Source of the DNA: an uncultured Frankiaceae bacterium
Lineage (GTDB): Bacteria; Actinomycetota; Actinomycetes; JAFAQI01
NCBI GenBank assembly: GCA_964510285.1
Contig: CAZEAM010000138.1
Coordinates: forward strand, 1 to 41,498
DNA length: 41,498 bases
Direction: 5' to 3'
Part shown: in pieces, positions 7,200 through 35,994 of the stretch
Layout: every line of letters begins with the position of its first letter
How positions within the stretch are numbered: the first letter of the stretch is position 1
The notes under the pieces: generated by a model
Told to the model about the DNA's origin: nothing
Seen by the model: only the letters and a program-made list of their open reading frames with translations
Databases searched by the model: none
Translations under genes and position numbers: made by a program

Positions 7200-7215
7200 T
7201 CTGACGACCCGTCAG
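7200..7215. promoter_or_regulatory. operator-like palindrome, distal copy (TCTGACG-ACC-CGTCAG)
   Basis: Inverted repeat read directly. Same core as the sites at 14656, 16378, 31573 and 35970. Confidence 0.5.
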
Positions 7216-7257
7216 CACGTCCGCCGACCCCGCCCACCGCCCTACAGCGGAGACGGG

Positions 7258-7274
7258 TCTGACGACCCGTCAGA
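7258..7274. promoter_or_regulatory. operator-like palindrome, middle copy (TCTGACG-ACC-CGTCAGA)
   Basis: Inverted repeat read directly. Confidence 0.5.
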
Positions 7275-7314
7275 CGTCCGCCGACCCCGCCCACCGCCCT
7301 ACAGCGGAGACGGG

Positions 7315-7337
7315 TCTGACGACCCGTCAGATATCTT
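7315..7337. promoter_or_regulatory. operator-like palindrome (TCTGACGACCCGTCAGATA) overlapping a -10-like TATCTT hexamer
   Basis: TATCTT (7332..7337) fits TANNNT and ends 6 nt before GTG 7344. This geometry suggests a leaderless transcript. Confidence 0.55.
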
Positions 7338-7343
7338 CACTGG

Positions 7344-8807
7344 GTGCCTCGTGACCGTGCTTATCGGCTGTTCATCGGCGGCGAGTGGGTGGAGCCGGAC
7401 AACGGCTACTACGACGTCATCAACCCAGCCGACGAGTCGGTCGTCGGTCGTGCCCCGGAGGCGAGCAAGCAGCAGGTGTACGACGCCGCGGCGGCTGCGA
7501 AGGCCGCGTTGCCGGCCTGGTCGGCGACCAAGCCGGAGGAACGCGCCGAGATCCTGAACCGGGTGGTCGAGGTCATCGGCAAGCACGCCGACGAGTACGC
7601 CGAGATCGCCCAGGCCGAGACGGGCGCGACCTCGGCGACGGTGAAGTCGCTGCAGGTCAACGTGGCGATGCAGCGGTTCCGGCGCTACGCGCAGGGTGCC
7701 CTCGAGTCCAACCAGATCCCGCTGCCGCCCACGGTGAGCGAGTCGACGCCGCTGTCGAAGGGTGGGCTCACCGGCGCGCTGGTGATCCGGCAGCCGGTCG
7801 GCGTGGTCACCTGCATCACGTCGTACAACAACCCATGGGCCAACCCGTCGGGCAAGATCGCGCCGGCTCTCGCGATGGGCAACACCCTCGTGGTCAAGCC
7901 CGCCCCGCAGGATCCGCTGTCGGTCGTCCTGATGACCGAGGCGCTCGAGGAGGCCGGGCTGCCCCCCGGCGTGGTCAACCTGATCAACGGCCAGGCGGTC
8001 GAGGTCGGACAGGCATCCGTCGACTCCCCGGACGTCGACATGGTCAGCTTCACGGGCAGCACCCAGGTCGGCCGAGCGATCGGCGCCGCGGCCGGTGGGC
8101 AGATGAAGCGCGTCCTGATGGAACTCGGCGGCAAGGGCGCCGCGATCGTCTTCGAAGACGCCAACCTGCAGGCCGCGATCGGCGCGATCGGGACGACGTT
8201 CTCCTTCTACTCCGGTCAGATCTGCACCGCGCCGACCCGCGTCTACGCCCACGCATCGGTCTACGACCAGGTGGTCGACGGGCTCACCAAGTACGCGACG
8301 GCGCTGAAGGTCGGGGATCCCACCGCGCCGGACACGGTCGTCGGCCCGGTCATCTCCGCCGTGCATCGCGACCGGGTGGAGGGCTACGTCGCGAAGGGCA
8401 AGGAGGAGGGCGCGACGTTGCTCGCGGGTGGCGAGCGCCCGGCCATCGACGCGGGCTTCTACGTCGCACCGACGCTGTTCGCGGACTGCCGCAACGACAT
8501 GTCGATCGTGCGCGTAGAGATCTTCGGTCCGGTCGTCTCGGTGGTGAAGTTCGATAGCGAGGAGGAGGCGATCGCGCTCGCGAACGACTCCGACTACGGC
8601 CTGATCAACTACGTCTGGACGGCGGACCTCGCGCGTGGTTACCGGGTCGCGAAGCAGCTGCAGTCCGGCACCGTCGACCTCAACACCGTCACCCAGCAGA
8701 TGGAGGCGCCGTTCGGCGGCTTCAAGCAGAGCGGCGTGGGGCGCGACCGCGGCTCGTTCGGCCTGCACGCCTACAGCGAGATGCAAGCGATCGTCTGGCC
8801 CGGCTGA
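7344..8807 (+). CDS. NAD(P)-dependent aldehyde dehydrogenase
   Basis: 487-aa ORF (GTG start) with ALDH motifs LFIGGEWVEP, VLMELGGKGAAIVF and FYSGQICTAPTR (catalytic Cys). Confidence 0.92.
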   Translation: MPRDRAYRLFIGGEWVEPDNGYYDVINPADESVVGRAPEASKQQVYDAAAAAKAALPAWSATKPEERAEILNRVVEVIGKHADEYAEIAQAETGATSATVKSLQVNVAMQRFRRYAQGALESNQIPLPPTVSESTPLSKGGLTGALVIRQPVGVVTCITSYNNPWANPSGKIAPALAMGNTLVVKPAPQDPLSVVLMTEALEEAGLPPGVVNLINGQAVEVGQASVDSPDVDMVSFTGSTQVGRAIGAAAGGQMKRVLMELGGKGAAIVFEDANLQAAIGAIGTTFSFYSGQICTAPTRVYAHASVYDQVVDGLTKYATALKVGDPTAPDTVVGPVISAVHRDRVEGYVAKGKEEGATLLAGGERPAIDAGFYVAPTLFADCRNDMSIVRVEIFGPVVSVVKFDSEEEAIALANDSDYGLINYVWTADLARGYRVAKQLQSGTVDLNTVTQQMEAPFGGFKQSGVGRDRGSFGLHAYSEMQAIVWPG

Positions 8808-8835
8808 TCGTCAACCCGAGTTGGTAAGGAGCGCC

Positions 8836-9891
8836 ATGCGCGGCGTTGTGTACGACGGCACCGGCTACCAGGTCGTCGACGACCTGTCGGTGAAGGACCC
8901 CGGTCCGGGCGAGGTCGCGGTGCGGATCCACTCGGCGGGGCTCTGCCACAGTGACCTGTCGGTGATCAACGGCACCATTCCATTCCCGACGCCGGTGGTC
9001 CTCGGGCACGAGGGCGCGGGCGTCGTCGAGGCGGTCGGGTCCGGCGTCACATCCGTGAGGGAAGGGGACCACGTCGTCCTGTCCACGCTGGGCAACTGCG
9101 GCGCGTGCCAGTACTGCGACGCCGGCAAGCCGACGATGTGCCGTTCGACCTTCGGCGGCCGGCCGCAGCCGTTCACGTGGAAGGGCGAGGCGGCGTACGC
9201 CTTCGCCAACGCGTCGGTGTTCTCCGAGCAGACGGTGGTGAAGGCCAACCAGGCGGTGCCGATCCCGAAGGACGTGCCACTCGACGCGGCGTCGCTGGTC
9301 GGCTGCGGCGTGCTCACCGGCGTCGGTGCCGTGCTCCAGCGCGCACGGGTTCCCGAAGGCGCCAGTGCGCTGGTCATCGGGGTTGGTGGGATCGGCCTCA
9401 ACGTGATCCAGGGCCTCGCGCTGGCCGGCGCGTCGACGATCATCGCGGTCGACACCAACCCGTTGAAGAAGGAGATCGCCGCGACCTTCGGTGCCACCCA
9501 CTTCATCGAGAGCACCGAGGGGGTGAAGGAGGTCGCACCCAACGGGGTCGACTTCGCCTTCGAGTGCGTAGGACACGTCAAGCTGATCCGCGCCGCGATC
9601 GACCTGCTCGACTGGGGCGGGACCGCGGTCATGCTCGGCGTGCCGGGCTTCGCCGACGAGGCGTCGTTCAACGTCTCGTCCATGTACCTGGACAAGGGCG
9701 TGCTCGGCTGCCGGTACTGCACGTCGCAGCCGCAGCGTGACATCCGCCGGTACGTCGAGCTGTACCAGCAGGGACGGCTCAAGCTCGACGAGCTGGTCTC
9801 GGCGAGGTACCCGCTCGGCGATATCACGAAGGCGGTCCACGCGATGGAGTCCGGCGAGCTGGCCGCCCGCGGCGTACTCGCGATCGCCTAG
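8836..9891 (+). CDS. Zn-dependent alcohol dehydrogenase (MDR family, class III/mycothiol-type-like)
   Basis: Internal ATG 8836 of ORF 8635..9891, preceded by AAGGAG. Motifs GLCHSDLS, GHEGAGVVEAVG, CGACQYCDAGKPTMC and VIGVGGIGLNV. Confidence 0.9.
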   Translation: MRGVVYDGTGYQVVDDLSVKDPGPGEVAVRIHSAGLCHSDLSVINGTIPFPTPVVLGHEGAGVVEAVGSGVTSVREGDHVVLSTLGNCGACQYCDAGKPTMCRSTFGGRPQPFTWKGEAAYAFANASVFSEQTVVKANQAVPIPKDVPLDAASLVGCGVLTGVGAVLQRARVPEGASALVIGVGGIGLNVIQGLALAGASTIIAVDTNPLKKEIAATFGATHFIESTEGVKEVAPNGVDFAFECVGHVKLIRAAIDLLDWGGTAVMLGVPGFADEASFNVSSMYLDKGVLGCRYCTSQPQRDIRRYVELYQQGRLKLDELVSARYPLGDITKAVHAMESGELAARGVLAIA

Positions 9892-9904
9892 GGGAGGCTG
9901 CCGA

Positions 9905-10546
9905 GTGCCGGTCGACGTAGCGGCGCTCGTCGACCCCGGCCACACGGCGGTCGTCACGAGCGAGTGCCAGAACAGCGTCGTGGGCTCGCAGTCGATGCTG
10001 CCCGAGCTCGCGGACGCGGCTGCGGCAACCGTCGTCCCCAACGGCGCCCGGGTCTGCACGGCGGCCCGGGCGGTGGGCGCCTCGGTCGTGCACTGCGTCG
10101 CCGGGCGGCGACCCGACGACCGCGGATCGAACAGCAACGCCCGGCTGTTCGGCGCGGTGTTGAAGTCGCCCGTCGTCCCGTTGCTCGGCACGATGGCGAC
10201 CGAGGTGATCGAAGAGTTCGGGCGGGCCGACAGCGACCTGGTGCTGTCCCGGATCCACGGGCTGAGTCCGATGGCGGGCACCGACCTCGACCCGGTTCTC
10301 CGCAACCTCGGGGTGTCCACGATCGTCGTGGTCGGAGTGTCGGTGAACGTTGCGATCAGCAACCTGGTGATGGACGCGGTGAATCGCTCCTACCAGGTCG
10401 TGGTGGTCCGCGACGCCGTCTGCGGCGTACCGCCGGCGTACGCCGACGCGGTCCTCGACAACACGCTGTCGCTACTCGCAACCGTGATCACGACCGACGA
10501 GCTGCTGGGTCACTGGGCGAGCTGGCGTCGTACTGATCGGAAGTAG
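9905..10546 (+). CDS. isochorismatase-family hydrolase
   Basis: GTG 9905 within ORF 9737..10546, sequence VPVDVAALVDPGHTAVVTSECQNSVV...IVVVGVSVNVAISNLVMDA. Shows the isochorismatase-like beta-strand pattern. The usual N-V-C-V nucleophile position reads NVAI, so there is no Cys. The 3' end overlaps the convergent DUF1990 gene by 37 nt. Confidence 0.75.
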   Translation: MPVDVAALVDPGHTAVVTSECQNSVVGSQSMLPELADAAAATVVPNGARVCTAARAVGASVVHCVAGRRPDDRGSNSNARLFGAVLKSPVVPLLGTMATEVIEEFGRADSDLVLSRIHGLSPMAGTDLDPVLRNLGVSTIVVVGVSVNVAISNLVMDAVNRSYQVVVVRDAVCGVPPAYADAVLDNTLSLLATVITTDELLGHWASWRRTDRK

Positions 10547-11907: not shown

Positions 11908-11912
11908 GCCGT

Positions 11913-11919: not shown

Positions 11920-11924
11920 GCGAC

Positions 11925-13475: not shown

Positions 13476-14636
<1,161 letters not shown>

Positions 14637-14655
14637 GCCCCAGAGGCTACCGAAG

Positions 14656-14729: not shown

Positions 14730-16292
14730 ATGGGGAGCGGGCGGGAACCCGGGAGTCACGCGGTCGGTCGCCGTGAGCTGCTCGCGGGGAGCCTGGGTGG
14801 CGGCCTCGCGCTTGTCGCAGGCGGCCGGGCGCGGGCCACGGCGGCACCGCGCCGCGGGCCGCGGTACCGGTACGCGCCGAGCCCCGCGTCGCTCGCTGAG
14901 CACCCGTTGCCCGACTGGTGGCGCGACGCCAAGTTCGGCGTCTTCGTCCACTGGGGCGTCTACTCGGTGCCGGCCTGGGCGCCGACGAACTGGTTGTTGA
15001 ACCTCGCCGAGTGGTACTGGCGCTTCCAGTCCTTGGCCGGCACGCCGTACTGGAAGCACCATCTCGAGACCTACGGCGCGAACCTCGTGTACGACGACTT
15101 CATCCCGCACTTCCGCGCCCAGCGCTACGACCCGGCCGGCTGGGCCGACCTGTTCCGCGACGCGGGCGCGCGCTACTTCATCCTCACGACGAAGCACCAC
15201 GACGGGTTCGCGCTGTTCCCGTCGGCGGGCAGCCGCCGCAACGCCGCGGCGATGGGCCCGCGCCGCGACCTGGTCGGGCCGCTCGTCAGCGCAGCCCGCA
15301 AGCGCGACCTGAAAGTGGGCTTGTACTACTCGGTGCCGGAGTGGTTCAACCCGGCGCCTCATCTGCAGCTGACGCTTGATCGGGTGACCGCCGGGCTCGG
15401 TGGCGGGACCGACGCCCTGGTCACCCAGGCGGTCGACGCGGCGGTGTTCAACCAGGGCGGTCCCTCGAACGCCTACACCCTGCTTCCCGTGCCGTACCGC
15501 GGCTACCGCTGGGTGGCCGACTACGCGCACTTCGAGCGCGCGCAGCTGCGCGAGCTGATCCGCCGCTACCACCCGGACGAGATCTGGGCCGACATCGGCG
15601 GCCCGGAGGACTACTTCCGAGGCAACGAGACCATCGCGGCGTTCTACAACCAGGCCGAGACCCACAACCCGGACGGTGTGGTCGTCAACGACCGCTTCGG
15701 CGACTACCGCACCCACCACGACTACGTGGTCATCGAGAACGGAGGCTCCTACGGACTCGGCGACTACACCGGCGGGCCGAGCGAGACGGTCCGGACGATG
15801 GGTACCTCGTGGGGTTTCAACCAGGCTGAGCACGACTACGCGCCCGTGGAGACCTTCGTCCGTGAACTGGTCAACGCGGTCGCCAACAACTCCAACTACG
15901 TCCTCAACATCGGGCCTCGTGCGGACGGCACGATCGCCGAGCCGCTGGTCAACCGGCTGAAGGGGATCGGCGACTGGCTCGAGATCAACGGCGAAGCGAT
16001 CTACGCGACCCGGACATGGACGAGGCCGGGGGCGGGCGCGGTCCGCTACACGATCGGGAAGCACGGCAGGCGCTACGTCATTGCGCTGGGCTGGCCCGGC
16101 AGGGAGCTCGTCATCGACGGGCCCGCGCCGATCCCCGATCACGCGAAGATCGTCCTGCTGGGATCCGATGGTCGCCCGTTGCGCTGGCGGCGGTCGGGGT
16201 CCACGGTCCGGATCACGATGCCCGCCGGCGGCAACCTCCCACGCGCGACTCGCAGCAGGCACGCGTTCGCCTTCCGCATCTCGCCCGACTGA
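14730..16292 (+). CDS. alpha-L-fucosidase (GH29) with a Tat-type signal
   Basis: Internal ATG 14730 of ORF 14154..16292 (MGSGREPGSHAVGRRELLAGSLGGGLALVAGG). GH29 signature DAKFGVFVHWGVYSVPAWAP. The upstream part of the track ORF overlaps the thiolase antisense strand. Confidence 0.85.
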   Translation: MGSGREPGSHAVGRRELLAGSLGGGLALVAGGRARATAAPRRGPRYRYAPSPASLAEHPLPDWWRDAKFGVFVHWGVYSVPAWAPTNWLLNLAEWYWRFQSLAGTPYWKHHLETYGANLVYDDFIPHFRAQRYDPAGWADLFRDAGARYFILTTKHHDGFALFPSAGSRRNAAAMGPRRDLVGPLVSAARKRDLKVGLYYSVPEWFNPAPHLQLTLDRVTAGLGGGTDALVTQAVDAAVFNQGGPSNAYTLLPVPYRGYRWVADYAHFERAQLRELIRRYHPDEIWADIGGPEDYFRGNETIAAFYNQAETHNPDGVVVNDRFGDYRTHHDYVVIENGGSYGLGDYTGGPSETVRTMGTSWGFNQAEHDYAPVETFVRELVNAVANNSNYVLNIGPRADGTIAEPLVNRLKGIGDWLEINGEAIYATRTWTRPGAGAVRYTIGKHGRRYVIALGWPGRELVIDGPAPIPDHAKIVLLGSDGRPLRWRRSGSTVRITMPAGGNLPRATRSRHAFAFRISPD

Positions 16293-17564: not shown

Positions 17565-18559
17565 GGCTCGCCGCGGACCAGGACGCGCTCGACTTCGCGG
17601 AGAGCATCGCGGAGCTGCTCGCCGACGTCGCCGACGCTGCGGCGTTGCGGGCGGCGTGGGACGACCCCGACGGCCGAATCCCGGGGGTGTGGAAGCGGCT
17701 CGCCGAGACCGGCCTGCTCGGGCTGACCGTCCCCGAGCAGTACGGCGGGTCCGGCGCCGATCTCACCACGTTGCTGCCGGCGCTGATCGAGCTCGGTCGC
17801 GCCGCACTTCCCGAGCCGGTGGTGGAGACCGTCGTCGGGGCGACGCTCCTGGCGCGTTGCGGCGGCGACCTGGCCGCGCAGTGGCTGCCCCGCGTCGTTG
17901 CGGGTGACGCCGTCATCGCGGTCGGCCTTGGACCCGGCTCGCTGATCAGCGCGGCGCCGTGGGCGGATCTGGTGCTGGTGCAGCGGCCTGACGGGACGGT
18001 TGTCGCCGCGCCGCGCGAAGCTGCGTCGCTGACCGAGCACGCGTCGGTCGACCGCGGCATGCGGTTTGCCTCGGTTGCGGCTGATGACGGCGCGGCGTTG
18101 ACCGGTGCCGACCCCGGTCCGGTGTTCGATCTCGGTGCCGTCGCCTACGCGGCGCTGTTGACCGGCGGGGCGAGGGCGATGCTCGAGATGAGCGTTGACT
18201 ATGCCCGGCAGCGGGAGCAGTTCGGCGTACCGATCGGTTCGTTCCAGGCCATCAAGCACCAGCTCGCCAACGTGTATGTCGGCACCGTCTTCGCCTTGCC
18301 GGTCGTGGCGCGCGGCGCGTGGTCCGTGGCGCACGACGTCCCGACGCGCAGTCGCGACGCCTCGCACGCAAAGCACATCGCGACGGTGTCGGCACAACAG
18401 GCGGCGCGCACCGCGCTTCAGGTGCACGCCGGGATCGGCTACACCTACGAGCACGACCTGCACATGTGGATGAAGCGGACCTGGACGCTGTCCTCGCTGT
18501 GGGGGACCGCGGCCTGGCACAAAGCGCGAGTAGCGAAAGCAGTTTTGGAGGACGCATGA
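17561..18559 (+). CDS. acyl-CoA dehydrogenase family protein (beta-type subunit, catalytic-base motif absent)
   Basis: ATG 17561 overlaps the upstream stop (ATGA). MRLAADQDALDFAESIAELL...GLLGLTVPEQYGGSGADL...REQFGVPIGSFQAIKHQLA...LQVHAGIGYTYEHDLHMWMKR. No G-T-x-E motif near the C-terminus. Confidence 0.8.
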   Translation: MRLAADQDALDFAESIAELLADVADAAALRAAWDDPDGRIPGVWKRLAETGLLGLTVPEQYGGSGADLTTLLPALIELGRAALPEPVVETVVGATLLARCGGDLAAQWLPRVVAGDAVIAVGLGPGSLISAAPWADLVLVQRPDGTVVAAPREAASLTEHASVDRGMRFASVAADDGAALTGADPGPVFDLGAVAYAALLTGGARAMLEMSVDYARQREQFGVPIGSFQAIKHQLANVYVGTVFALPVVARGAWSVAHDVPTRSRDASHAKHIATVSAQQAARTALQVHAGIGYTYEHDLHMWMKRTWTLSSLWGTAAWHKARVAKAVLEDA

Positions 18560-22489: not shown

Positions 22490-22493
22490 CCGG

Positions 22494-26644: not shown

Positions 26645-27388
26645 TCAGCCGGCGGTGATGCCGTTGTCGCTGGAGATGATCGCACCGTGGATGTTTTTCG
26701 CCTCGTCGGAGGCGAGGAAGCAGAACAACGCGGCGATGTCCTCCGGCTTGGCGAAGCCGCGCGGGCTCGTGTAGCGGCCGATCAGATCCCAGTCGACGTC
26801 GTCAGGCATCTGGAAGCCACGGATCAGGGCGGTGTCCGTGCCGCCGGGCGCGATCGCCACCACCCGCAGCGGTTTCTTCAGGTACTCCATCGCGAGTGAC
26901 TTGGTCAGCTGTACGACGGCGCCCTTCGTCATCGTGTACACGACCGAGAACGCCTGTCCCATGAGACCAGCGTTCGACGCGATGTTGATCACTACGCCCT
27001 TCGTCTCGAGCAGGTGGGGGATCGCTGCCTGGGCCATGAAGAAGTAGGCGTCGACGTTGACCGCGAACATCTGCCGGTAGGCCGCTTCGGTGACGTCGGT
27101 GAAGTGCTCGTTACGCCCGATGCCGGCGATGTTGCCGAGGATGTCGAGCCGTCCGTGCCGACCGACCGCTTCGGAGACCGCCGCCTGGCACTCGGTGACG
27201 ACCGTGAGATCAGTCGGTCGGATCACCACGTTGTCACCGCCGAGCTCGGCGGTCTCCTTGAGCCGCCTCTCGTCGATGTCGAGCGCGAAGACTGTGGCGC
27301 CCTCGGCCGCGAGTCGCAAGGTCGTCGCCCGGCCGATGCCCGAGCCGGCGCCGGTGATGATCGCCGTCTTCCCCTCGAACCGCGTCAT
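26645..27388 (-). CDS. short-chain dehydrogenase/reductase (SDR)
   Basis: Internal ATG 27388 of ORF 26645..27544 (MTRFEGKTAIITGAGSGIGRA), with the YTMTKGAV (YxxxK) motif. The ATG overlaps the upstream thioesterase stop (ATGA). Confidence 0.9.
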   Translation of the reverse strand: MTRFEGKTAIITGAGSGIGRATTLRLAAEGATVFALDIDERRLKETAELGGDNVVIRPTDLTVVTECQAAVSEAVGRHGRLDILGNIAGIGRNEHFTDVTEAAYRQMFAVNVDAYFFMAQAAIPHLLETKGVVINIASNAGLMGQAFSVVYTMTKGAVVQLTKSLAMEYLKKPLRVVAIAPGGTDTALIRGFQMPDDVDWDLIGRYTSPRGFAKPEDIAALFCFLASDEAKNIHGAIISSDNGITAG

Positions 27389-28065
27389 TCCGTGGTCCCT
27401 CCCGCCGGCTGTCCGAAGATGCCGAGATAGTCCTGGCCCGGGCGCGGCGCGATGAACAGCCCGTGCGCCTCGCTGATCAACACGCCGTCGAGGTGGCAGG
27501 TGCCGCGAATCCAGCGTTTGCGTCCCTCGATCGACTCGATCCAACCGCGCAGCTCGAGCTCGCGGTTCAACGGGGTCGGCTTGCGGTAGTCGACGTGCAG
27601 GAACGCGGTGAACCCGGGCTGGAGCTGGACGAACCCGAGCAGCTCGTCGAACATCGCCGCGACGAAGCCCCCATGACAGTGGCCGGGCGGGCCTTCGTAC
27701 GCCGGGCCGAAGGTAACGCTGGCTTCGACGTGGTAGTCGTCCGGTCCGTCATCGACGACCCACATTGAAAGCGGCGGCGCGATCGGGTTGGCCATCCCGG
27801 ACAGTGGGCTGTGGTTGACGAAGTCGCGCGGCTGCAAGCCGGCTTCGCTGATCTCCCACGATTTCGACCGCTGGGGCAGGTCCTCGAGGGTGTCCGCGAA
27901 CTGGTTCGCCGCCTCGGCGGCTCGGTCGAGCTGCTCGGCGGGTGGCCGTACGACGACGAGCTTGGCGATGATCCGGCGCATCGCGTCGGCGAGCCGTTGG
28001 GCGGCCGCCTTGTCCTCGTCGAGCTGCTGCTCGCTGTCAGCGCCGCGGTGCACGTCCTCTGACAA
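27385..28065 (-). CDS. PaaI-family hotdog-fold thioesterase
   Basis: 226-aa ORF. The C-terminal half has GPPGHCHGGFVAAMFDELLG, typical of PaaI/DUF4442-type hotdog proteins, preceded by a long acidic N-terminal extension. Confidence 0.75.
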   Translation of the reverse strand: MSEDVHRGADSEQQLDEDKAAAQRLADAMRRIIAKLVVVRPPAEQLDRAAEAANQFADTLEDLPQRSKSWEISEAGLQPRDFVNHSPLSGMANPIAPPLSMWVVDDGPDDYHVEASVTFGPAYEGPPGHCHGGFVAAMFDELLGFVQLQPGFTAFLHVDYRKPTPLNRELELRGWIESIEGRKRWIRGTCHLDGVLISEAHGLFIAPRPGQDYLGIFGQPAGGTTE

Positions 28066-28069
28066 TGTC

Positions 28070-28876
28070 TCAGTCCTTGAAGTCCGGCGGGCGCTTGTCT
28101 TTGCGCGCCGTGATCGCCTCTTCGAAGTTACGTGTCGTGAGGCGGACGTAGAGCTGGGAGAGCCCTTCGTTGCGCATGTGCCCTGAAAGGCTTCCGCCGT
28201 CCAGGCTGGCCGCGAGCATGCGTTTGGTCAGCTCGATGCCCGGCCGGCTGAACCCGGTGATGCGCTCGGCGACGTCGTAGCAGGTGGCCAGCAGCTCGCC
28301 GTCGGGTGCCGTGTGGGATGCGAGCCCGATCGCCTTGGCCTCGGCGGCGTCGACGTCGCGACCGGTCAGCATGATGTCGGCCGCGCGCACCGCGCCGACG
28401 GCTCGCGGCAGCAGATATGACAGGCCCAGCTCGGTGGCGGTCAGCCCGTTGTTGATCCCCGCGGCCCGGAAGTACGCCGACTCGCCTGCTACGACCAGGT
28501 CACAGGCGAGGGCGAGACAGAAACCACCGCCGATCGCCGGGCCATTGACCGCGGCGATCACCGGTTGGTGCATCGTCCGCACCGTCGTGATGACCCGTTC
28601 GAGCAGCTCCATCGACCGCAGCGCGATGGTCGGCAGGGTGAGCCCCTCGATGTCCGGAACCCGGCCGGGGTTCTCCAGATCGGCACCGGAGCAGAACGCG
28701 CCGCCCGCGCCGGTCAGCACGACGGCGCGGATGTCGTTGTCCGCGCTGATCCGTTCCAGTTCCTCGCGCAGCGGGATCATCACGTCGAACGCCATCGCGT
28801 TCATCCGGTCGGGCCGGTTCAGCGTGACGAGGGCGACGTGCGGGCGCGGCCGCTCGACCGAGACGAAGTCGGTCAT
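28070..28876 (-). CDS. enoyl-CoA hydratase/isomerase
   Basis: Internal ATG 28876 of ORF 28070..29020 (MTDFVSVERPRPHVALVTLNRPDRMNAM...VVLTGAGGAFCSGADL). Confidence 0.9.
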   Translation of the reverse strand: MTDFVSVERPRPHVALVTLNRPDRMNAMAFDVMIPLREELERISADNDIRAVVLTGAGGAFCSGADLENPGRVPDIEGLTLPTIALRSMELLERVITTVRTMHQPVIAAVNGPAIGGGFCLALACDLVVAGESAYFRAAGINNGLTATELGLSYLLPRAVGAVRAADIMLTGRDVDAAEAKAIGLASHTAPDGELLATCYDVAERITGFSRPGIELTKRMLAASLDGGSLSGHMRNEGLSQLYVRLTTRNFEEAITARKDKRPPDFKD

Positions 28877-28893
28877 CAGGTGGTCGTCACCGC

Positions 28894-29349
28894 TCAGCCG
28901 CTGAGCGGGGTGTCGGTCAGACCGACCACGGAGTAGCACCGGGTTGCGGCGCGGGAGGCGAACCGCCATCCGTCGGCGGTCTCGACGAACTCGTCGTCGT
29001 ACCAGAGCCCGATCAGCCATGCCTGCTGGGTGCCGTCCTTCTGGTCCATGACCATCGGGTTGTGGCAGGAGGTGCGGGCCGTCGCGGTATGTGCGTTGAG
29101 CGTGATTAACGGGAGCCCCATCATGTGCTGGGTTCGCGCGAACAGCGCGAGGTTGCCCTTGAGGAACTCCTTCATCTCGGCGAGGCCGGCGTTGGGACCG
29201 CCGAAGCTCGAGAAGTCGAGGTGGGCGTCGGCCGTGAACAGGTGGTCCAGCGCATCGAGATCCCCGCTGTCCACCAGCGCCGGATAGGTGGCGATCAGGT
29301 TCTGGATCGCGAGCGTGTCGGCGACCGCCTCGAGGTTGATGTGCGCCAC
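28894..29349 (-). CDS. NTF2-like (SnoaL_4) family protein
   Basis: Track ORF 28894..29388. I prefer GTG 29349 (VAHINLEAVADTLAIQNLIATYPALVDSGDLDALDHLFT), 2 nt after the upstream stop. ATG 29388 would overlap the synthetase by 37 nt. Confidence 0.7.
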   Translation of the reverse strand: MAHINLEAVADTLAIQNLIATYPALVDSGDLDALDHLFTADAHLDFSSFGGPNAGLAEMKEFLKGNLALFARTQHMMGLPLITLNAHTATARTSCHNPMVMDQKDGTQQAWLIGLWYDDEFVETADGWRFASRAATRCYSVVGLTDTPLSG

Positions 29350-29351
29350 GT

Positions 29352-30974
29352 CTAGTTCCCCTCTGTCATCGCGATCTTCTTGGCCCACGCGTAGTCGGGC
29401 TTGCCCGCCGGCGTTCGTTCGACCTTGTCGACGAGCACGAGGGCCCGCGGCAGCTTGTAGCCGGCGAGGGACTCGCGAGCGTGTTGTTGCAGCGCATCGA
29501 GCGTCGCAGCCTGGCCTCGGGCGGCGGCGACGACTGCCACGACCTGCTCACCCCATCGCTCGTCCGGTACGCCGACCACGACGACGTCGGCTACCGCGTC
29601 ATTCGTCATCAGTACCGCCTCGACCTCTTCGGGGTAGACCTTCTCTCCGCCGGTGTTGATCGAGGTGGACCCGCGGCCGAGCAGTACGACGGTGCCGTCC
29701 TCGGCGACGGTGGCGTTGTCGCCGGGCAACACCCACCGCTCCCCGTCGATGACGAGGAAGGTCGCCCGGGTCTTCGCCTCGTCCTTGTAGTAGCCGATCG
29801 GCACGAAGCCCTTGCGGGCCAGCCTGCCAACTTGGCCGGATCCGGGCTGCACCGGCTTGCCGGCGTCATCGAGTACCTGGGTCTGTGCGTTGACGGTGAA
29901 CGTCGGCTCGGTTGTCGTGTCGCCGGTGACGTGCAGCTTGCTGCCGACGATGCCGGTTTCCGAGGAGCCGAACCCGTCGACCACCATGAGTGACGGGAGC
30001 AGCTCGGTCAGTCTGGCTTTGGCTCGCGTCGACAGGCGCGCCCCCCCGGATCCAATGACGATCAGTGACGACGCGTCGAACGGATGCCCGCTGTCGCGCG
30101 CCGCTGCAAACGCGTCGGCGAGCGGACGTGCCATCGCGTCCCCGACGATCGTGAGGATGTTGACGCGCTCCGTCGCGACGAGGCTCCAGATCCCGTCGGC
30201 GTCGAACGGCCCTTGAGGCGGGAACACGACGCGACCACCGGCGAACAGCGAATGGAAGACGCCCCACTGCGCGCTCACGTGCATGAGCGGTGGCGTGGTG
30301 AGGATCGTTCCGCCGGTCTCGGGAATCCGCTCGACGAGCTCTTCGGGCGTTGCGATGAAGTTGCCCGACTGGAAGACGTCGCCCCCGCCCATGGCTGCGA
30401 AGAAGATGTCCTCCTGCCGCCACACGACGCCCTTGGGTAGGCCCGTCGTGCCGCCCGTGTACGCGATGTAGCGGTCGTCGCCGGTGCGTTCCGAACCGTC
30501 CGGTCGGGCCGGGTCCGCGCCGGCCAGCGCGGTCTCGTAGTCGAGAGAGTCGGGCGCGAGCTCGGCACCTGAGTTCTCCGCGACGACGATCAGGTTGCGG
30601 ACGGTCTCTGCCTTCGGAAAGACCGCGGCGACCCGTGGGGCGAACTGCTGGTGGTGGATCACGGCGACCAGGTCGGCATCGTCGTACAGGTGGCGCAGCT
30701 CGCCCTCGACGTACCGGAAGTTGACGTTCACCGGTACCGCGCCGATCTTGAATGCCGCGAGCATCCCCTCGATGTACTCCGACCCGTTGAGCAGCTGCAG
30801 GCCGATGTGCTCGCCGCGTTCGACCCCCAGGTCGGTGAGGGCGTTCGCCAGCCGGTTGGCACGGTCGTCGAGCTGGGCGAAGGTCAGGCGCCGGGCGGGG
30901 GAGACGATGACCTCACGGTCCGGGACAGCGTCAGCGACTCGCTCGAACAGGTCAGCGAGGTTGAAGCCGGACAA
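29352..30974 (-). CDS. AMP-dependent acyl-CoA synthetase
   Basis: 540-aa ORF with a TTG start and GGAGGA 4 nt upstream. Motif YTGGTTGLPKGVVW and N-terminus MSGFNLADLFERVADAVPDREV, typical of long FadD-like ligases. Confidence 0.9.
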   Translation of the reverse strand: MSGFNLADLFERVADAVPDREVIVSPARRLTFAQLDDRANRLANALTDLGVERGEHIGLQLLNGSEYIEGMLAAFKIGAVPVNVNFRYVEGELRHLYDDADLVAVIHHQQFAPRVAAVFPKAETVRNLIVVAENSGAELAPDSLDYETALAGADPARPDGSERTGDDRYIAYTGGTTGLPKGVVWRQEDIFFAAMGGGDVFQSGNFIATPEELVERIPETGGTILTTPPLMHVSAQWGVFHSLFAGGRVVFPPQGPFDADGIWSLVATERVNILTIVGDAMARPLADAFAAARDSGHPFDASSLIVIGSGGARLSTRAKARLTELLPSLMVVDGFGSSETGIVGSKLHVTGDTTTEPTFTVNAQTQVLDDAGKPVQPGSGQVGRLARKGFVPIGYYKDEAKTRATFLVIDGERWVLPGDNATVAEDGTVVLLGRGSTSINTGGEKVYPEEVEAVLMTNDAVADVVVVGVPDERWGEQVVAVVAAARGQAATLDALQQHARESLAGYKLPRALVLVDKVERTPAGKPDYAWAKKIAMTEGN

Positions 30975-31022
30975 CCGATCCTCCGGGACGACAAGGGGGT
31001 GTCCCGGACTATACGGGCGGCG

Positions 31023-31511
31023 CTAGCAGCCAGGGATCTTGGTGCCGCCCGCGCCCAGCTGCACGAGCGTGCAAAACGTCGACTGCGACACCTTCCACCG
31101 GCCGTCCTGCAGCACCGCCTGGCCGGTCGCTTTCGGCAGCAGGACGCTGCCGTGGCTGAGCAGGTTGTAGGTGACGGTCGCGGCGGTGGGGCTCGTGAAG
31201 TCGACGCCGAGGACCTTCGCGTCCTCGGTGATCTTCTGCTTGCGCTGGATCTTGGCGGCCACCTTGATCGCCGCGCCGAGCCGGCTGCCGTTCTCGAGCA
31301 GCTGCGCCGCCGCTTTCGGATCGGTTCCGGTGTGGAAGAAGGTCTGCCACGTCGTGGTGATGGCGGCCGTCGCGGCGGCTTGGTCGGACGGTGCGGTGGC
31401 ACCTGCGTAGTGGTGCTCGGGCGTTGTGCTGGCCGGTCCGCCGCTGCTGCCTCCGCAACCCGCGATGGTGAGAATGGCGGCGACCGCAAGCACCGGGTAA
31501 ACGGTTCTCAT
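31023..31511 (-). CDS. lipoprotein (hypothetical)
   Basis: 162-aa ORF with signal peptide plus lipobox VLAVAAILTIAGC and a Gly/Ser linker. No further family recognised. Confidence 0.7.
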   Translation of the reverse strand: MRTVYPVLAVAAILTIAGCGGSSGGPASTTPEHHYAGATAPSDQAAATAAITTTWQTFFHTGTDPKAAAQLLENGSRLGAAIKVAAKIQRKQKITEDAKVLGVDFTSPTAATVTYNLLSHGSVLLPKATGQAVLQDGRWKVSQSTFCTLVQLGAGGTKIPGC

Positions 31512-31600: not shown

Positions 31601-33049
31601 ATGACCTCATACGACCAGCTGCTGATCGGTGGAAAGTGGGTCGCTCCGTCGACCAGCCAGACCTTCGAGGTGCGTTCGCCCGCGACGCTCGAGGTTGTCG
31701 GCACCGTCCCGGAGGGGGTCGAGGCCGACATCGACGCAGCGGTCGCAGCGGCGCGGCATGCGTTCGACCACGGACCATGGCCGACCACTCCGCCGACCGA
31801 GCGGGCAACGGTGCTCGCGAAGTTCGCCGACCTGCTCGCCGAGCGGATCGAGGACTACAAGTCCGTCATCTCCTCCGAGATGGGCGCGCCGCCCACCACG
31901 GTCGAGATGATGATGTACACCCCGGCCAAGGGCGCGCTCGACGTCTTCACCGGCCTCGCCGAGACCTTCCCCTGGGAGGAGCAGCGCAGCGGCGCTTTCG
32001 GCATCAGCAAGGTGCGCCGCGAGCCGGTCGGCGTGGTGGCCGCGATCATCCCTTGGAACGTGCCGCTGTTCATCGCGGTCAACAAGGTCATCCCGGCGTT
32101 GCTCGCCGGCTGCACCGTCGTCCTGAAGCCCGCGCCCGAGACGCCGATCGACTCGCTGATGCTCGGCGGGCTGCTGGTGGAGGCCGGGCTGCCCGAAGGC
32201 GTGATCTCCGTCGTACCGGCCGACCGTGCGGTCAGCGAGTACCTGGTCACCCATCCCGGCGTCGACAAGGTCTCGTTCACCGGCTCGACGGCGGCTGGCC
32301 GCCGGGTCGGGTCGCTTGCGACGGAGCGGTTGAAGCGGGTCTCGCTCGAGCTCGGCGGCAAGTCCGCGGCGATCCTGCTCGACGATGTCGACCTCGCTTC
32401 GAGCGCGTTCATGATCGCGTTCTCCGGGCTGATGAACTCCGGCCAGGCATGCGTCGCGCAGACCCGCATCCTCGCCCCGCGAAACCGCTACGACGAGATC
32501 ACCGAGGCGATCACCGAGGCGGCCAAGATGTTCGTCGTCGGCGACCCGTCGGACCCCGCCACACAGCTCGGCCCGCTGGTTGCCGAGCGGCAGCGCGACC
32601 GGGTCGAGGGCTACATCGAGAAAGGCAAGGCCGAGGGCGCCCGCCTGGTGCTCGACGGCACCCGGCCCGCAGGCTTGGACACCGGCTGGTACGTCGCACC
32701 GACCGTCTTCGCTGACGTCGACAACAAGATGACGATCGCCCAGGAGGAGATCTTCGGCCCGGTGTTGTCGCTGCTGCCGTACGACACCGAGGAAGAGGCG
32801 GTCGCGATCGCCAACGACAGCGATTTCGGGCTTGCCGGATCGGTGTGGACGCAGGATGTCGACCACGGGTACGAGATCGCGACCAGGGTGCGCACCGGTA
32901 CGTACGGCATCAACTGGTACGCCTTCGACATGGGCTCGCCGTTCGGCGGCTACAAGTGCTCCGGCATCGGCCGCGAGGATGGTCCCGAGGGGCTGGCAGC
33001 CTTCTGTGAGCTCAAGTCGATCCTCATGCCCATGGGCTACACGGGCTGA
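31601..33049 (+). CDS. NAD(P)-dependent aldehyde dehydrogenase
   Basis: 482-aa ORF with LLIGGKWVAP, VSLELGGKSAAILL and NSGQACVAQTR (catalytic Cys). Confidence 0.92.
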   Translation: MTSYDQLLIGGKWVAPSTSQTFEVRSPATLEVVGTVPEGVEADIDAAVAAARHAFDHGPWPTTPPTERATVLAKFADLLAERIEDYKSVISSEMGAPPTTVEMMMYTPAKGALDVFTGLAETFPWEEQRSGAFGISKVRREPVGVVAAIIPWNVPLFIAVNKVIPALLAGCTVVLKPAPETPIDSLMLGGLLVEAGLPEGVISVVPADRAVSEYLVTHPGVDKVSFTGSTAAGRRVGSLATERLKRVSLELGGKSAAILLDDVDLASSAFMIAFSGLMNSGQACVAQTRILAPRNRYDEITEAITEAAKMFVVGDPSDPATQLGPLVAERQRDRVEGYIEKGKAEGARLVLDGTRPAGLDTGWYVAPTVFADVDNKMTIAQEEIFGPVLSLLPYDTEEEAVAIANDSDFGLAGSVWTQDVDHGYEIATRVRTGTYGINWYAFDMGSPFGGYKCSGIGREDGPEGLAAFCELKSILMPMGYTG

Positions 33050-33059
33050 CGTCCTTTCG

Positions 33060-33142
33060 CCGAAGTAGCACACAAAGTCGGCCTGAGCGGGTCCGTGCAC
33101 GCTCGCGCGGGACGCGTTGAGGGCACTTTGTGTGCTACTCCG
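33060..33142. repeat. 84-bp-class element with terminal inverted repeats (CCGAAGTAGCACACAAAGT...ACTTTGTGTGCTACTCCG), copy 2
   Basis: Arms read directly, with one mismatch. Lies 10 nt after the ALDH stop and 5 nt before ATG 33148. Confidence 0.8.
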
Positions 33143-33147
33143 AACAC

Positions 33148-33450
33148 ATGGCTACCTTCGTATTCCGGCTGATCGCCCCGCGCCCCGACTTCGCGCTGAC
33201 CCTGAGTGACGAGGAACGCGAGATCATGGGGCAGCACGCGGCGTACTGGCAGCCGCGCGTGGAGGCCGGCGAGTTTGTCGTGTTCGGCCCGGTGCTCGAC
33301 GGCAACGGCTCGTGGGGGCTCGGCGTGATCGAGGCCGACGACGAGGACGAGTTGCGCACCTTCGCGGCGGGCGACCCGGCGGTGACCTCGGGCGTCGCGA
33401 CGGTCGAGATCGGCTCGATGCTCCGCGGGTACGTCCGCCCCCGCTCCTAG
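33148..33450 (+). CDS. YciI family protein
   Basis: ATG 33148 within ORF 33130..33450. 100 aa: MATFVFRLIAPRPDF...HAAYWQPRVEAGEFVVFGPVLD...FAAGDPAV, a YciI-like pattern. Confidence 0.75.
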   Translation: MATFVFRLIAPRPDFALTLSDEEREIMGQHAAYWQPRVEAGEFVVFGPVLDGNGSWGLGVIEADDEDELRTFAAGDPAVTSGVATVEIGSMLRGYVRPRS

Positions 33451-33520: not shown

Positions 33521-34543
33521 TCAGCCGTGGGGGAGGACGACGGCGCGGCCGTTGAGGGTGCCGGCTTTCAGGCGGTCGTAGGCCTCGACCACCTGGTCGA
33601 AGCCGAACTGCTCGACCTCCACGACGACCTCGCCGCTCTTCGCGAGCGCGATGACCTCGTGCAACTCGGTGATCGTCGCTCCCTGCGGGTTGAACAGGTC
33701 GGCGTCGTGGGCCCACGCGCCGTAGCGCACCTCGGCCGACCCGAACCCCTGTCCCACCAGACCGATCGCACCGGCCTTGGCCACGTTGCGCATCGACGCA
33801 CGGATCGTGGCGTCGCTGCCGACGAAGTCGAGGATGGCGTCGGCGCCACCGTCCCCGATCGCCTCGGCGAGCCGTTTCGACAGCCCCTCGCCCGCCTCAA
33901 GAACGTCGTGTGCGCCGAGCTCGCGGGCCGCCGCCATCCGCTCCGGCCGCGCCTCGACCGCCACGATCCGGGCGTTGGTCAGCATCCGCAACCACTGCAC
34001 GCCGTACGCGCCGAGTCCACCGACCCCGATCACGACGGCGGTCGAGTCGTCGTACAGCTTCGGCAGCACCTTCTTGACGGCGTGGTACGACGTGGCGCCG
34101 GCGTCCGTCAGCGGCGCCACCACCTTCGGGTCGAGCGCGCCGAGTGGCACGACCTGCCCGGCGCCGACCACGACGTACTCGGCGAGGCCGCCATCGAGGC
34201 CGAAGCCGCGACCGTGCCAGGTGTCGACGCAGTAGTTGTCCTGCCCGCGCCGGCACCAGCGGCAGCGGCCGCAGGGCGACATGCAGGCGACCGCGACCGG
34301 CTCGTCGGTTGCGAGGCCGTCCACGCCGTCACCGACCGCGTCGATCCATCCGGCGATCTCGTGGCCGAGGGTGAACGGCAGGTCGTAGGGCAGCAGCCCG
34401 GCCGGGGAGTCGAGGAAGATCACGTCGGAGTGGCAGAGCCCGACCCCGGCGATGCGCACCCTGACCTGATCCGGGCCGGGCTCGGGCACCGGAACCTCGT
34501 CGAAGTCCGCCCGTTGCCAGTCCAGGAGACGGTAGGCCCGCAT
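33521..34543 (-). CDS. Zn-dependent alcohol dehydrogenase (MDR family)
   Basis: Internal ATG 34543 of ORF 33521..34729 (MRAYRLLDWQRADFDEV). Motifs GLCHSDV, GHEIAGWIDAVG, CGRCRWCRRGQDNYC and VIGVGGLG. Confidence 0.88.
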   Translation of the reverse strand: MRAYRLLDWQRADFDEVPVPEPGPDQVRVRIAGVGLCHSDVIFLDSPAGLLPYDLPFTLGHEIAGWIDAVGDGVDGLATDEPVAVACMSPCGRCRWCRRGQDNYCVDTWHGRGFGLDGGLAEYVVVGAGQVVPLGALDPKVVAPLTDAGATSYHAVKKVLPKLYDDSTAVVIGVGGLGAYGVQWLRMLTNARIVAVEARPERMAAARELGAHDVLEAGEGLSKRLAEAIGDGGADAILDFVGSDATIRASMRNVAKAGAIGLVGQGFGSAEVRYGAWAHDADLFNPQGATITELHEVIALAKSGEVVVEVEQFGFDQVVEAYDRLKAGTLNGRAVVLPHG

Positions 34544-34569
34544 CGCGCCCTGCGCGTCGTTCGGCACGG

Positions 34570-35010
34570 CTACTGCTCGACGGGCAAGATGCTGATCCAG
34601 TTCACCCGCAGCTCGCGTCGCTTGAACCACCACAGGCCGCCTTCGCGCACGTACTCGTCGAGGTAGTACGCGAACATCACGTGGTCCTTGACGTTCGGCG
34701 GCACCCCGATCAGGTGGTGCGCTTCGCACCTGGCCTCGCCCGTGGCCCGGTCACCGGCGATCTCGACGACATGGCTGCCGATCGTGTGGTGCGTGTGGCT
34801 GTAGTCGCGGATCCGGTCGATCGCGCCCGCGATCTCGGCGCGGCCGCGGCGCAACGAGGTCGGGTCGGGCGAGTCCGGGTCGAGCCACATCGCGAACTCG
34901 CCGTCCTCGGTGAACAACCGGCCCACCGTCGCGCCATCACCGCGATCGGCGGCGGCGGCGTACCGCTCGACGAGCTGGCGGATCTCCCAGCTGGCCGCGA
35001 AGTCGATCAC
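34570..35010 (-). CDS. NTF2-like (SnoaL_4) family protein
   Basis: 146-aa ORF, EIRQLVERYAAAADRGDGATVGRLFTEDGEF. The ATG overlaps the upstream LLM stop by 4 nt. Confidence 0.75.
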   Translation of the reverse strand: MIDFAASWEIRQLVERYAAAADRGDGATVGRLFTEDGEFAMWLDPDSPDPTSLRRGRAEIAGAIDRIRDYSHTHHTIGSHVVEIAGDRATGEARCEAHHLIGVPPNVKDHVMFAYYLDEYVREGGLWWFKRRELRVNWISILPVEQ

Positions 35011-35894
35011 TTGGTTCCCTCCCGGAACGCCTTGCCGAGTGCCGACAGCGCCGCCGGCGCCTCGGCCAGTGTGGGGGCGAACGCGGCGAGGTTCACCGTC
35101 ACGTCGGTCACTCCGGCCGCGACCAGCTCAGGCACGGCACCCATTGTCGCGGTCGGGTCCGCAGCGCCGTCAGCACCCGTCACGGTCGGGGCGCGCATCT
35201 GGACATCGAGCGGCCGGCTGGCTGCTGCCGCCAGGCGGTCGGCGCCGTCGCGCACGTCCTGCAGCGTCGCGCCCATGATCGGGATCCAGCCGTCACCGAG
35301 ATCGACGATGCGCGCGAGCATCCGCGGGGTCAGCGTGCCGCCGAACCACACCGGCAACCGGGTCTGCACCGGCTGCGGCGAGCAAAACGTGTCGTCGAAG
35401 CGGACCGATCCGGACGCGTACGACGCGGGCAGCTGCGACCACAGCGCCCGGCAGGCCGCGATCGTGTCGTCGAGCAGCGCACCGCGCCGCGCGAAGTCGA
35501 GCCCGACGGCGTCGTACTCCTCACGCTGCCATCCGACGCCGACGCCGAGATCCACCCGCCCGCCGGACAACGCGTCGAGGGTCGCGACCTGCTTGGCGAG
35601 AAGGGCAGCGGGACGCAACGGCGCGATCAGGATCCCGGTCGAGAGCCGGAGCGTGGAGGTGACCGCGGCCATCGCGGTGAGTACGGTGAGCGGCTCGAGC
35701 CACGGTGCCTCGGGCGGCACCGGGAACCGTCCCCACGCATACGCGTCTGTGTTGCGCCCCATGACGACGTGGTCGACGACGACGATGCGGTCGACGCCCG
35801 CGTCCTCGGCGATCCGCGCCACGTCGACCAGTCCGCGCCAGTCGCCTCCGGACCAGCCGCCGAAGTTGGGGACTCCGACGCTCAACGTGACCAA
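35007..35894 (-). CDS. LLM-class F420-dependent oxidoreductase (TIGR03619-like)
   Basis: Track ORF 35007..35957. I prefer TTG 35894 (MVTLSVGVPNFGG...), with AGGGGG 5 nt upstream. TTG 35957 is the alternative. Motifs VDRIVVVDHV, LSGGRVDLGVGVGWQREEY. Confidence 0.78.
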   Translation of the reverse strand: MVTLSVGVPNFGGWSGGDWRGLVDVARIAEDAGVDRIVVVDHVVMGRNTDAYAWGRFPVPPEAPWLEPLTVLTAMAAVTSTLRLSTGILIAPLRPAALLAKQVATLDALSGGRVDLGVGVGWQREEYDAVGLDFARRGALLDDTIAACRALWSQLPASYASGSVRFDDTFCSPQPVQTRLPVWFGGTLTPRMLARIVDLGDGWIPIMGATLQDVRDGADRLAAAASRPLDVQMRAPTVTGADGAADPTATMGAVPELVAAGVTDVTVNLAAFAPTLAEAPAALSALGKAFREGTK

Positions 35895-35969
35895 CGAGAC
35901 CCCCTGAAGTGTGCGTGGGATTCGGGGTCCCCGCGGCGTCGGGTGCGAAGCGAACAACGTCGCGGGGAG

Positions 35970-35994
35970 TATCTGACACCCTTTCAGATATGGT
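35970..35994. promoter_or_regulatory. operator-like palindrome TATCTGA-CACCCTT-TCAGATA overlapping a -10-like TATGGT hexamer
   Basis: Perfect 7-bp arms with the same 17-bp core length as the other sites. Sits in the divergent LLM/acyl-CoA synthetase intergenic region. TATGGT lies at 35989..35994. Confidence 0.5.

Follow-up and report, generated by a model that had tools for sequence, protein, structure and literature searches.

KstR and KstR2 of Mycobacterium and Rhodococcus are TetR-family repressors that act on a short palindrome repeated across the promoters, many in number, of a cluster for lipid- or steroid-type catabolism, and their regulons rest on the same type of motif-plus-conservation argument that is made below. 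Mce3R (Rv1963c) of Mycobacterium tuberculosis represses lipid-metabolism operons that include pairs of acyl-CoA dehydrogenases (ACADs), a luciferase-like monooxygenase (LLM) and a flavin reductase. It is a 406-residue double TetR protein with 25 bp nonpalindromic sites (PMC11667970). BkaR, also called Fad35R (Rv2506), of the same organism is a single-domain TetR protein that sits as a dimer on a palindrome with the core GTTA-N-T-N4-A-N-TAAC in its own divergent promoter and at a few promoters of acyl-CoA metabolism (PMC3920632). Here we describe a stretch of 41,498 nucleotides from an uncultured Frankiaceae bacterium (contig CAZEAM010000138.1 of assembly GCA_964510285.1; 'the window' throughout), in which the palindrome (TA)TCTGAC-N5-GTCAGA(TA) occurs in seven copies distributed over five intergenic regions. 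The palindrome is likely to be the operator of a TetR-family repressor encoded at 6455-7108; judged by its sequence, this system would work like KstR, KstR2 or BkaR but belongs to no named regulon.

The seven candidate operators are given without a strand, each with its score in bits against the matrix described below.

7198..7218: operator copy 3, distal from the first aldehyde dehydrogenase (ALDH1) gene and nearest the TetR gene, GGTCTGACGACCCGTCAGCAC; one mismatch to the core; 17.8 bits
7256..7276: operator copy 2, GGTCTGACGACCCGTCAGACG; exact core; 20.6 bits
7313..7333: operator copy 1, abutting the TATCTT hexamer of the ALDH operon; exact core; 28.9 bits
14656..14676: operator between the thiolase and fucosidase genes, GACCTGACGCGGCGTCAGATT; one mismatch; 24.6 bits
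16378..16398: perfect 9+3+9 palindrome (21 bp), TATCTGACGGGTCGTCAGATA, overlapping the TATCGT hexamer of the ACAD operon; exact core; 36 bits
31572..31592: operator overlapping the CATAAT hexamer of the second aldehyde dehydrogenase (ALDH2) gene, AATCTGACGGGTCGTCACATA; one mismatch; 29.2 bits
35970..35990: operator variant TATCTGACACCCTTTCAGATA, followed by TATGGT; 30.4 bits

The exact core TCTGAC-N5-GTCAGA is matched three times in the window (7258, 7315 and 16380), where shuffled sequences predict 0.01 matches, and with up to two mismatches there are eight matches against 1.97 expected (7200, 7258, 7315, 14658, 16380, 31574, 35972 and 28058). A position weight matrix (PWM) built from non-window loci only, that is, from related contigs, scores the seven sites at 17.8-36 bits, with the next best window position at 6.7 and the 95th percentile of the shuffle maxima at 14. 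The match at 28058 (two mismatches) was rejected as an operator, as it reaches 2.0 PWM bits and lies mostly in coding sequence at a gene junction inside an operon, and it is probably a chance occurrence. A sequence-only reading of this DNA had reported seven copies, all of them intergenic, with a triple site; pattern search and PWM bear out the copies and their positions, and the triple site (7200-7331) contains three copies that are not independent, as they belong to one 57 bp tandem repeat. The number of independent loci is thus five. On a gene map based on codon-position G+C, Pfam domains and orthologue lengths, the intergenic share of the window (68.8% G+C) is 5.75%, and all seven sites fall within it (P ~6e-7 for five independent loci). 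Unrelated loci totalling 1.38 Mb hold two matches with at most one mismatch. An Rfam scan of the window returned no matches.

The half-sites are constant while the central spacer varies, and the flanking TA and a central G/C are enriched although both lie outside the search pattern; beyond the flanking TA, the information content outside the 21 bp does not exceed 0.4 bits. That these are CRP/FNR-type sites of a cyclic-nucleotide regulator is scarcely credible. The half-site TCTGA does resemble TGTGA, the 31572 site has a GTCACA half, and an open reading frame (ORF) with a cNMP-binding domain (Pfam) is present at 40759-41226; against this, the spacing is N7 rather than the N6 of TGTGA-N6-TCACA, the second half-site base is C in 72 of 74 half-sites and the ORF has no helix-turn-helix (HTH) domain. 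CRP sites are also not normally limited to one catabolic cluster.

The regulator and the genes that flank the sites are as follows, the targets being predicted ones.

6455..7108, minus strand: TetR-family regulator of 217 residues (Pfam TetR_N and TetR_C_24; syntenic orthologues)
7344-8807, plus strand: ALDH1, first gene of the target operon 7344..10546 (Pfam)
8836-9891, plus strand: Zn alcohol dehydrogenase (Zn-ADH) in the ALDH1 operon (Pfam)
9905-10546, plus strand: isochorismatase-like hydrolase, last gene of the ALDH1 operon (Pfam)
13476..14636, minus strand: thiolase, target (Pfam; NCBIfam PRK07801, 708 bits)
14730..16292, plus strand: alpha-L-fucosidase with a twin-arginine (Tat) signal (Pfam 3.5e-93; start codon and signal peptide checked)
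16410..23015, plus strand: six-gene target operon (Pfam and NCBIfam)
26645..31511, minus strand: possible divergent target operon (Pfam)
31601-33049, plus strand: ALDH2, target (Pfam)
33130-33450, plus strand: YCII-domain gene downstream of ALDH2, in the unit 31601..33450 (Pfam)
33521..35894, minus strand: divergent target operon of an F420-type LLM oxidoreductase, a SnoaL-like protein and a Zn-ADH (Pfam; TIGR03619)
36032..37618, plus strand: FadD8-like acyl-CoA ligase, target (NCBIfam FadD8 743 bits, below the 875 cutoff)

The six-gene operon encodes, in order, a PimC-like ACAD (ACAD16), a partner ACAD, a family III CoA-transferase, an acyl-CoA synthetase, a flavin reductase-IclR_C fusion and DoxX, with starts that overlap or abut the preceding gene. 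The fusion protein (21305-22489) joins an HsaB-like flavin reductase to an IclR-type C-terminal ligand-binding domain, without an HTH. The 26645..31511 genes specify an unknown 162-residue protein, an acyl-CoA synthetase, a SnoaL-like protein, an enoyl-CoA hydratase, a 4HBT thioesterase and a short-chain dehydrogenase/reductase; the F420-type LLM scores 222 bits against TIGR03619, above its cutoff of 167. Taken from this map, the regulon within the window would comprise roughly 20-24 genes, including two ALDHs, two ADH-containing operons, the thiolase, the PimCD-like ACAD operon, acyl-CoA ligases and the F420-type oxidoreductase.

Loci of relatives (designated by L-numbers) were fetched by protein similarity and never by motif, and the counts that follow are of distinct promoters examined. 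The search for the motif upstream of orthologous genes that had been proposed for this DNA found the palindrome at all eight ALDH1 promoters, with the same arrangement of operator and -10 hexamer, and upstream of the thiolase (6/6), ACAD16 (5/5), ALDH2 (3/3; kept in L016 and L026) and the FadD8-like ligase (14/14, most with TATCGT 6 nt before the ATG); at the pair formed by a further ACAD (ACAD11) and an alpha/beta hydrolase it is present in seven of eight cases, the exception being the window itself. The 14656-14676 site is orthologous to the thiolase-proximal site of L002. A metagenome scan based on the LLM recovered the exact variant TATCTGAAAGGGTGTCAGATA, the reverse complement of window 35970-35990, in about 20 distinct contigs; it is kept wherever the FadD8-like ligase (75-94% identity) lies nearby, and in L184 the ligase retains the site although the LLM operon has moved 3 kb off. 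LLM homologues without a ligase neighbour have no site at up to one mismatch. The closest named ligase homologue, of Rhodococcus/Nocardia (68% identity), stands in another gene context, and the Rhodococcus promoter has no site. A further conserved operator (L016:3367-3383; L184:16295-16311) lies between an LLM and NUDIX operon and a divergent DUF35/SCP2-thiolase operon; by synteny, this locus would be found about 1 kb past the right end of the window and would be a further target outside it. Across orthologous promoters the flanks diverge while the position of the palindrome relative to the -10 hexamers and start codons stays fixed. The sites are thus real, far above chance, confined to promoters, conserved at orthologous promoters and co-occurring with the TetR gene.

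In actinobacteria, leaderless transcripts are expected to show a TANNNT hexamer 6-7 nt before the start codon, and an operator that overlaps the -10 element or lies one turn upstream of it is typical of repression by occlusion. The -10-like hexamers of the window are

7332-7337, plus strand: TATCTT, 6 nt before GTG 7344 (ALDH1)
16397-16402, plus strand: TATCGT, 7 nt before GTG 16410 (ACAD)
31589-31594, plus strand: CATAAT, 6 nt before ATG 31601 (ALDH2)
35989-35994, plus strand: TATGGT, after the operator variant and upstream of the FadD8-like ligase
14644-14649, minus strand: TAGCCT, 7 nt before the thiolase ATG 14636
upstream of the TetR gene, minus strand: TACGAT, 6 nt before the TetR GTG start

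The hexamers and distances quoted in the sequence-only reading, the minus-strand TAGCCT included, were all correct on re-checking. Among the orthologous promoters, a TANNNT hexamer is found 6-7 nt before the start codon in nearly all those of ALDH1, thiolase, ACAD16 and the ligase, the spacing between the 17-mer core and the start codon has a bimodal distribution (12-13 or 21-22 nt, counted from the end of the core), and the operator either shares its terminal TA with the -10 hexamer or sits one helical turn upstream. Shine-Dalgarno sequences are present at internal operon genes and absent at the first genes behind the palindromes. Several promoters depart from this pattern and count against a uniformly leaderless layout. 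In the window, the FadD8-like ligase gene (36032) is preceded by a leader of ~30 nt that contains a GAGGA Shine-Dalgarno sequence, and the probable start codon of the F420-type LLM, TTG 35894 or 35885, stands behind a GGGGG Shine-Dalgarno sequence, ~80 nt from the 35970-35990 operator; two relatives have ALDH2 leaders of 61-67 nt and two have ligase leaders within 35-67 nt; and the hydrolase promoters of the relatives (ACAD11/hydrolase) have no TANNNT hexamer. The earlier proposal that a repressor on these sites would occlude the -10 elements of mostly leaderless transcripts is supported by the conserved TANNNT spacing and by the first genes without Shine-Dalgarno sequences, and meets exceptions in the ligase and LLM of the window. 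The minus-strand 26645..31511 operon is a possible target to which the assignment is weaker than to the plus-strand ALDH2: the 31572 operator lies 61 nt upstream of its ATG (31511), in the same relative position as in L016.

In the mechanism that we propose, one dimer would occupy each 17-21 bp site through the half-sites TCTGAC and GTCAGA, whose centres are ~11 bp apart. The sites would lie against the TANNNT -10 hexamer of mostly leaderless first genes, or one helical turn upstream of it, and as the site lies on or next to the -10 element the bound repressor would block RNA polymerase. Release would be effected by a ligand, probably an acyl-CoA or another pathway intermediate, the acyl-CoA being a guess by analogy with KstR2 and Fad35R. 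Binding by the TetR protein, repression through this binding, leaderless transcripts and induction by a ligand are what we infer from the sequence.

The protein encoded at 6455-7108 has an N-terminal HTH domain (TetR_N, PF00440; residues 33-77, E-value 7.9e-18) and an all-helical C-terminal domain for ligand binding and dimerization (TetR_C_24, PF17932; 32.7 bits against a cutoff of 26.4, E-value 9.5e-8). It had been described as the only visible HTH protein and as lying beside the triple site; Pfam agrees, with no other HTH protein in the window, and the linkage of the TetR gene to the ALDH operator is kept in every relative recovered. All close relatives of the TetR protein (74-91% identity) are encoded in metagenomes or in metagenome-assembled genomes (MAGs) labelled 'Mycobacteriales bacterium'; a scan of GTDB (one genome per species) gave four MAGs with the TetR at 74-91% identity and then nothing above 41%, although such a scan, which relies on exact peptide words, can overlook intermediates. 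The orthologue contigs are syntenic, with the TetR gene divergent from the ALDH-ADH-isochorismatase operon, itself kept in the relatives, followed by the hydrolase, ACAD and thiolase and, in some, by the ACAD pair. The DNA-binding domain (residues 28-80) hardly varies among 13 orthologue clusters, whose overall identity is 72-91%. The motif stops at this orthologue group: TetR paralogues at 36-46% identity, beside an ABC transporter or other genes, show no match to it at up to one mismatch.

The divergent gap between the TetR and ALDH genes measures 55-113 bp in most contigs, among them L001, L004 and L009; in the window, after repeat expansion, it has grown to 235 bp. TetR regulators have been shown to control a divergent neighbour when the intergenic region is usually shorter than 200 bp (PMC3511530). 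A palindromic site of 17-21 bp, within the ~15-28 bp of intergenic TetR-family operators, is present in this gap in the window and in all relatives. In L096, L098 and L099, divergent genes are served by a short common intergenic operator region, as in the TetR/tetA paradigm, from which the present system differs in that the targets are enzymes rather than an efflux pump, the promoters are seemingly leaderless with -10 hexamers that touch the operator ends, and there are many unlinked targets.

The best PDB matches of the TetR protein are Mce3R (9b7y, 3.5e-32, with both halves aligning), Fad35R/BkaR (4g12, 6.4e-21) and KstR2 (6e-10), and the alignments with Fad35R and with either half of Mce3R cover most of the protein. 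The best NCBIfam model, the SACE_7040 family (NF050111), gives 123.4 bits against a cutoff of 250. Mce3R, the closest of these, has two fused TetR modules and an asymmetric site, while the present regulator has a single module of 217 residues and a symmetric site; the native Mce3R probes are also without TCTGAC/GTCAGA, a motif that occurs only in the scrambled control probes of that study (PMC11667970). BkaR, the second-closest solved relative, matches over 170 residues, which indicates homology and not orthology, and differs both in its core and in its targets, which belong to branched-chain keto-acid metabolism. The window resembles the KstR and KstR2 regulons in content, with ACADs, a thiolase, FadD ligases, ChsH2-like proteins and an HsaB-like reductase, and in having sites that overlap promoters. 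KstR and KstR2 are nevertheless only distantly related to this TetR and not orthologous (NCBIfam KstR, 30.8 bits against a cutoff of 280; the KstR2 PDB match as above), and, unlike in their regulons, no ring-degrading steroid genes were seen in the window. It had been suggested that the motif fits neither KstR nor KstR2, and indeed the window contains no match to the KstR consensus TnnAACnnGTTnnA or to the KstR2 consensus AnCAAGnnCTTGnT. As far as sequence comparison goes, the operator differs from that of every characterized mycobacterial lipid regulator. Text searches of the literature (incomplete coverage) for the motif together with TetR returned only primers and unrelated papers and no prior description, and the main text of the mycobacterial TetR survey of Balhana et al. 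(2015) contains no TCTGA or TCAGA string.

Several observations weigh against the assignment of the palindrome to this TetR protein, and most of them are also what an operator bound by a regulator encoded elsewhere, such as a TetR paralogue or a MerR-type activator on the -35/-10 spacer, would explain. Paralogues with 43-49% identity have a near-identical recognition helix (GITGPGIYRHF) and yet no palindrome nearby; the assignment consequently rests on gene context and not on a protein-DNA code. In the other contigs, of which many carry ligase/LLM sites, no TetR gene was found within 10 kb of these sites, and in the window it is likewise 29 kb away. An operator between the -35 and -10 elements would fit a MerR-type activator too. 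Finally, the operator copy nearest to the TetR gene lies 89 nt from its start codon in the window, which makes autoregulation there doubtful. Under such an arrangement, the TetR gene would be a regulated gene, or its product would bind another site, for example a GTGAAC box conserved upstream of TetR genes of orthologues and paralogues alike. We nevertheless consider a regulator encoded elsewhere unlikely: every recovered locus with a TetR orthologue has the motif at the adjacent ALDH promoter, neither a MerR gene nor another HTH gene was found in the 41 kb, a 17-21 bp palindrome in a short divergent gap is the standard TetR arrangement (PMC3511530), and the DNA-binding domain of the TetR is under very strong constraint. 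The TetR protein of 6455-7108 remains the probable binding partner of the palindrome.

In the window the box itself, GTGAAC or GTGAAT, directly precedes the TACGAT-type hexamer of the TetR gene (7121-7140, minus strand). It is also found upstream of the TetR genes in L097, L098, L015, L012, L014 and L176, and it is kept in orthologues and in the 43-49% paralogues without the palindrome. Two relatives have an extra gene between operator and TetR, namely an unannotated ORF of 444 residues (L096:8593-9927) and an ORF of 212 residues with a hydrophobic N-terminal stretch (L099:9280-9918); both run in the TetR direction, and co-transcription with TetR from the operator-bearing promoter is therefore possible.

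The three copies beside the TetR gene belong to the following element.

7172..7331, no strand: 57 bp tandem repeat, 2.8 copies with one operator copy each (TRF score 311, 99% matches)

L096 has a single unit homologous to this repeat, and the triple site reads as a recent tandem expansion of 57 bp units. The distal repeat copy is also the exact point at which two independent assemblies of a nearly identical genome end or change partner. L180 (GCA_035545595.1; breakpoint region 960-1075) is 99.8% identical to window 3839-7215 and then joins a KAS-III-like gene with the order operator, 9 nt, TAGGCT, 6 nt and GTG; another contig (L181:1-50) ends in the distal copy. The L180 junction is either another promoter of the regulon or a chimera formed through the repeat, and the copy number of the repeat in the window is uncertain. 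The breaking of assemblies at the palindrome, the multiplication of one copy by the tandem repeat and the ability of the palindrome to fold as a hairpin of 7-9 bp, would suit a nonregulatory element that settles in intergenic DNA, be it a palindrome of the REP (repetitive extragenic palindromic) or MITE (miniature inverted-repeat transposable element) kind, a hairpin terminator or a recombination site. We regard this as highly improbable in view of the fixed position relative to -10 hexamers and starts at orthologous promoters despite diverged flanks, the location upstream of genes rather than after them, the absence of a T-run, the restriction of conservation to 21 bp with no longer element around, and the constancy of the half-sites where the spacer varies.

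The operator-bearing regions between thiolase and ACAD and between ACAD11 and hydrolase differ among close relatives. The genes concerned in the second region are

between 10546 and 11925, minus strand: DUF1990 gene and alpha/beta hydrolase (Pfam)
11925-13085: ACAD11 (Pfam)

In L096, L098 and L099, a gap of only 41-45 bp separates the start codon of the thiolase from that of the ACAD; it contains one operator, which meets a -10 hexamer at either end. L004 has two operators within 103 bp between the two genes. The fucosidase gene, absent between thiolase and ACAD in these four loci, lies inserted between two operators in the window and in L002; with the 14656-14676 operator 56 nt upstream of its start, it is possibly a passenger or an added target. 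The operator that all seven relatives have in the ACAD11/hydrolase gap is missing from the window (11908-11924), where 17 bp separate the start codons of the two genes and a palindromic TACCGTA provides each of them with a TANNNT hexamer at 6 nt.

It is quite possible, though we put it forward tentatively, that the ancestral thiolase/ACAD region was a minimal bidirectional switch that has evolved fast in this lineage, leaving a natural series of rewiring steps. The ancestor would have had two back-to-back leaderless promoters, with each -10 hexamer starting with the terminal TA of one 21 bp operator, and one TetR dimer on this common operator would have silenced both thiolase and ACAD. Duplication of the operator (L004) and insertion of a gene between the copies (the fucosidase of the window and L002) would have followed, and the module would have evolved further through the 57 bp operator-bearing repeat at the ALDH promoter and through deletion at ACAD11/hydrolase in the window. 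A stable 84 nt hairpin (16294-16377) fills the space between the fucosidase stop codon and the 16378 operator; its outer arms measure 14 bp, and folding that includes the operator stem gives -69 kcal/mol (z = -6.8). This hairpin is possibly a terminator without a T-run that insulates the ACAD promoter.

The enzyme set comprises ALDH and ADH pairs, F420-type and other LLMs with a flavin reductase, SnoaL-like proteins, acyl-CoA ligases, PimCD-like ACADs, hydratases and a thiolase, and suggests the oxidation of an alcohol or aldehyde to an acid, followed by CoA activation and processing similar to beta-oxidation; the substrates are possibly dicarboxylic or alicyclic acids. As the NCBIfam equivalog scores of the ALDHs, ACAD, CoA-transferase and reductase are all below cutoff, no substrate is assigned. 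The analysis thus provides a predicted regulator, operator and set of about two dozen target genes for an uncharacterized catabolic pathway in a soil Mycobacteriales clade known only from metagenomes. Being distinct from those of every characterized mycobacterial lipid regulator, the operator could serve to search for the remaining members of the regulon and give hints at the substrate. The compact leaderless layout of promoter and operator, with its rearrangements among close relatives, is also a tidy case of promoter evolution. The predicted regulon adds a new example to a well-known kind of switch, that of a TetR protein acting on a palindrome, and the general concept of TetR regulation is unchanged.

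Two other elements of the window were observed. Between 23015 and 26645, where LLM oxidoreductases and unknown genes are located (Pfam/NCBIfam), an AT-rich palindrome, TTACGTTAC-N5-GTAATGTAA, occupies 23037-23061. Lying 60 nt before the LLM gene at 23119, it may be the operator of another regulator; it has no copy in any fetched locus. A cluster of GGTCGTCGGGCGGAACGCCC repeats lies at 40442-40650, in the 316 bp gap after the gene that ends at 40442, and consists of 4-5 direct and two inverted copies, each of which holds the small palindrome GGGCG-GAA-CGCCC.

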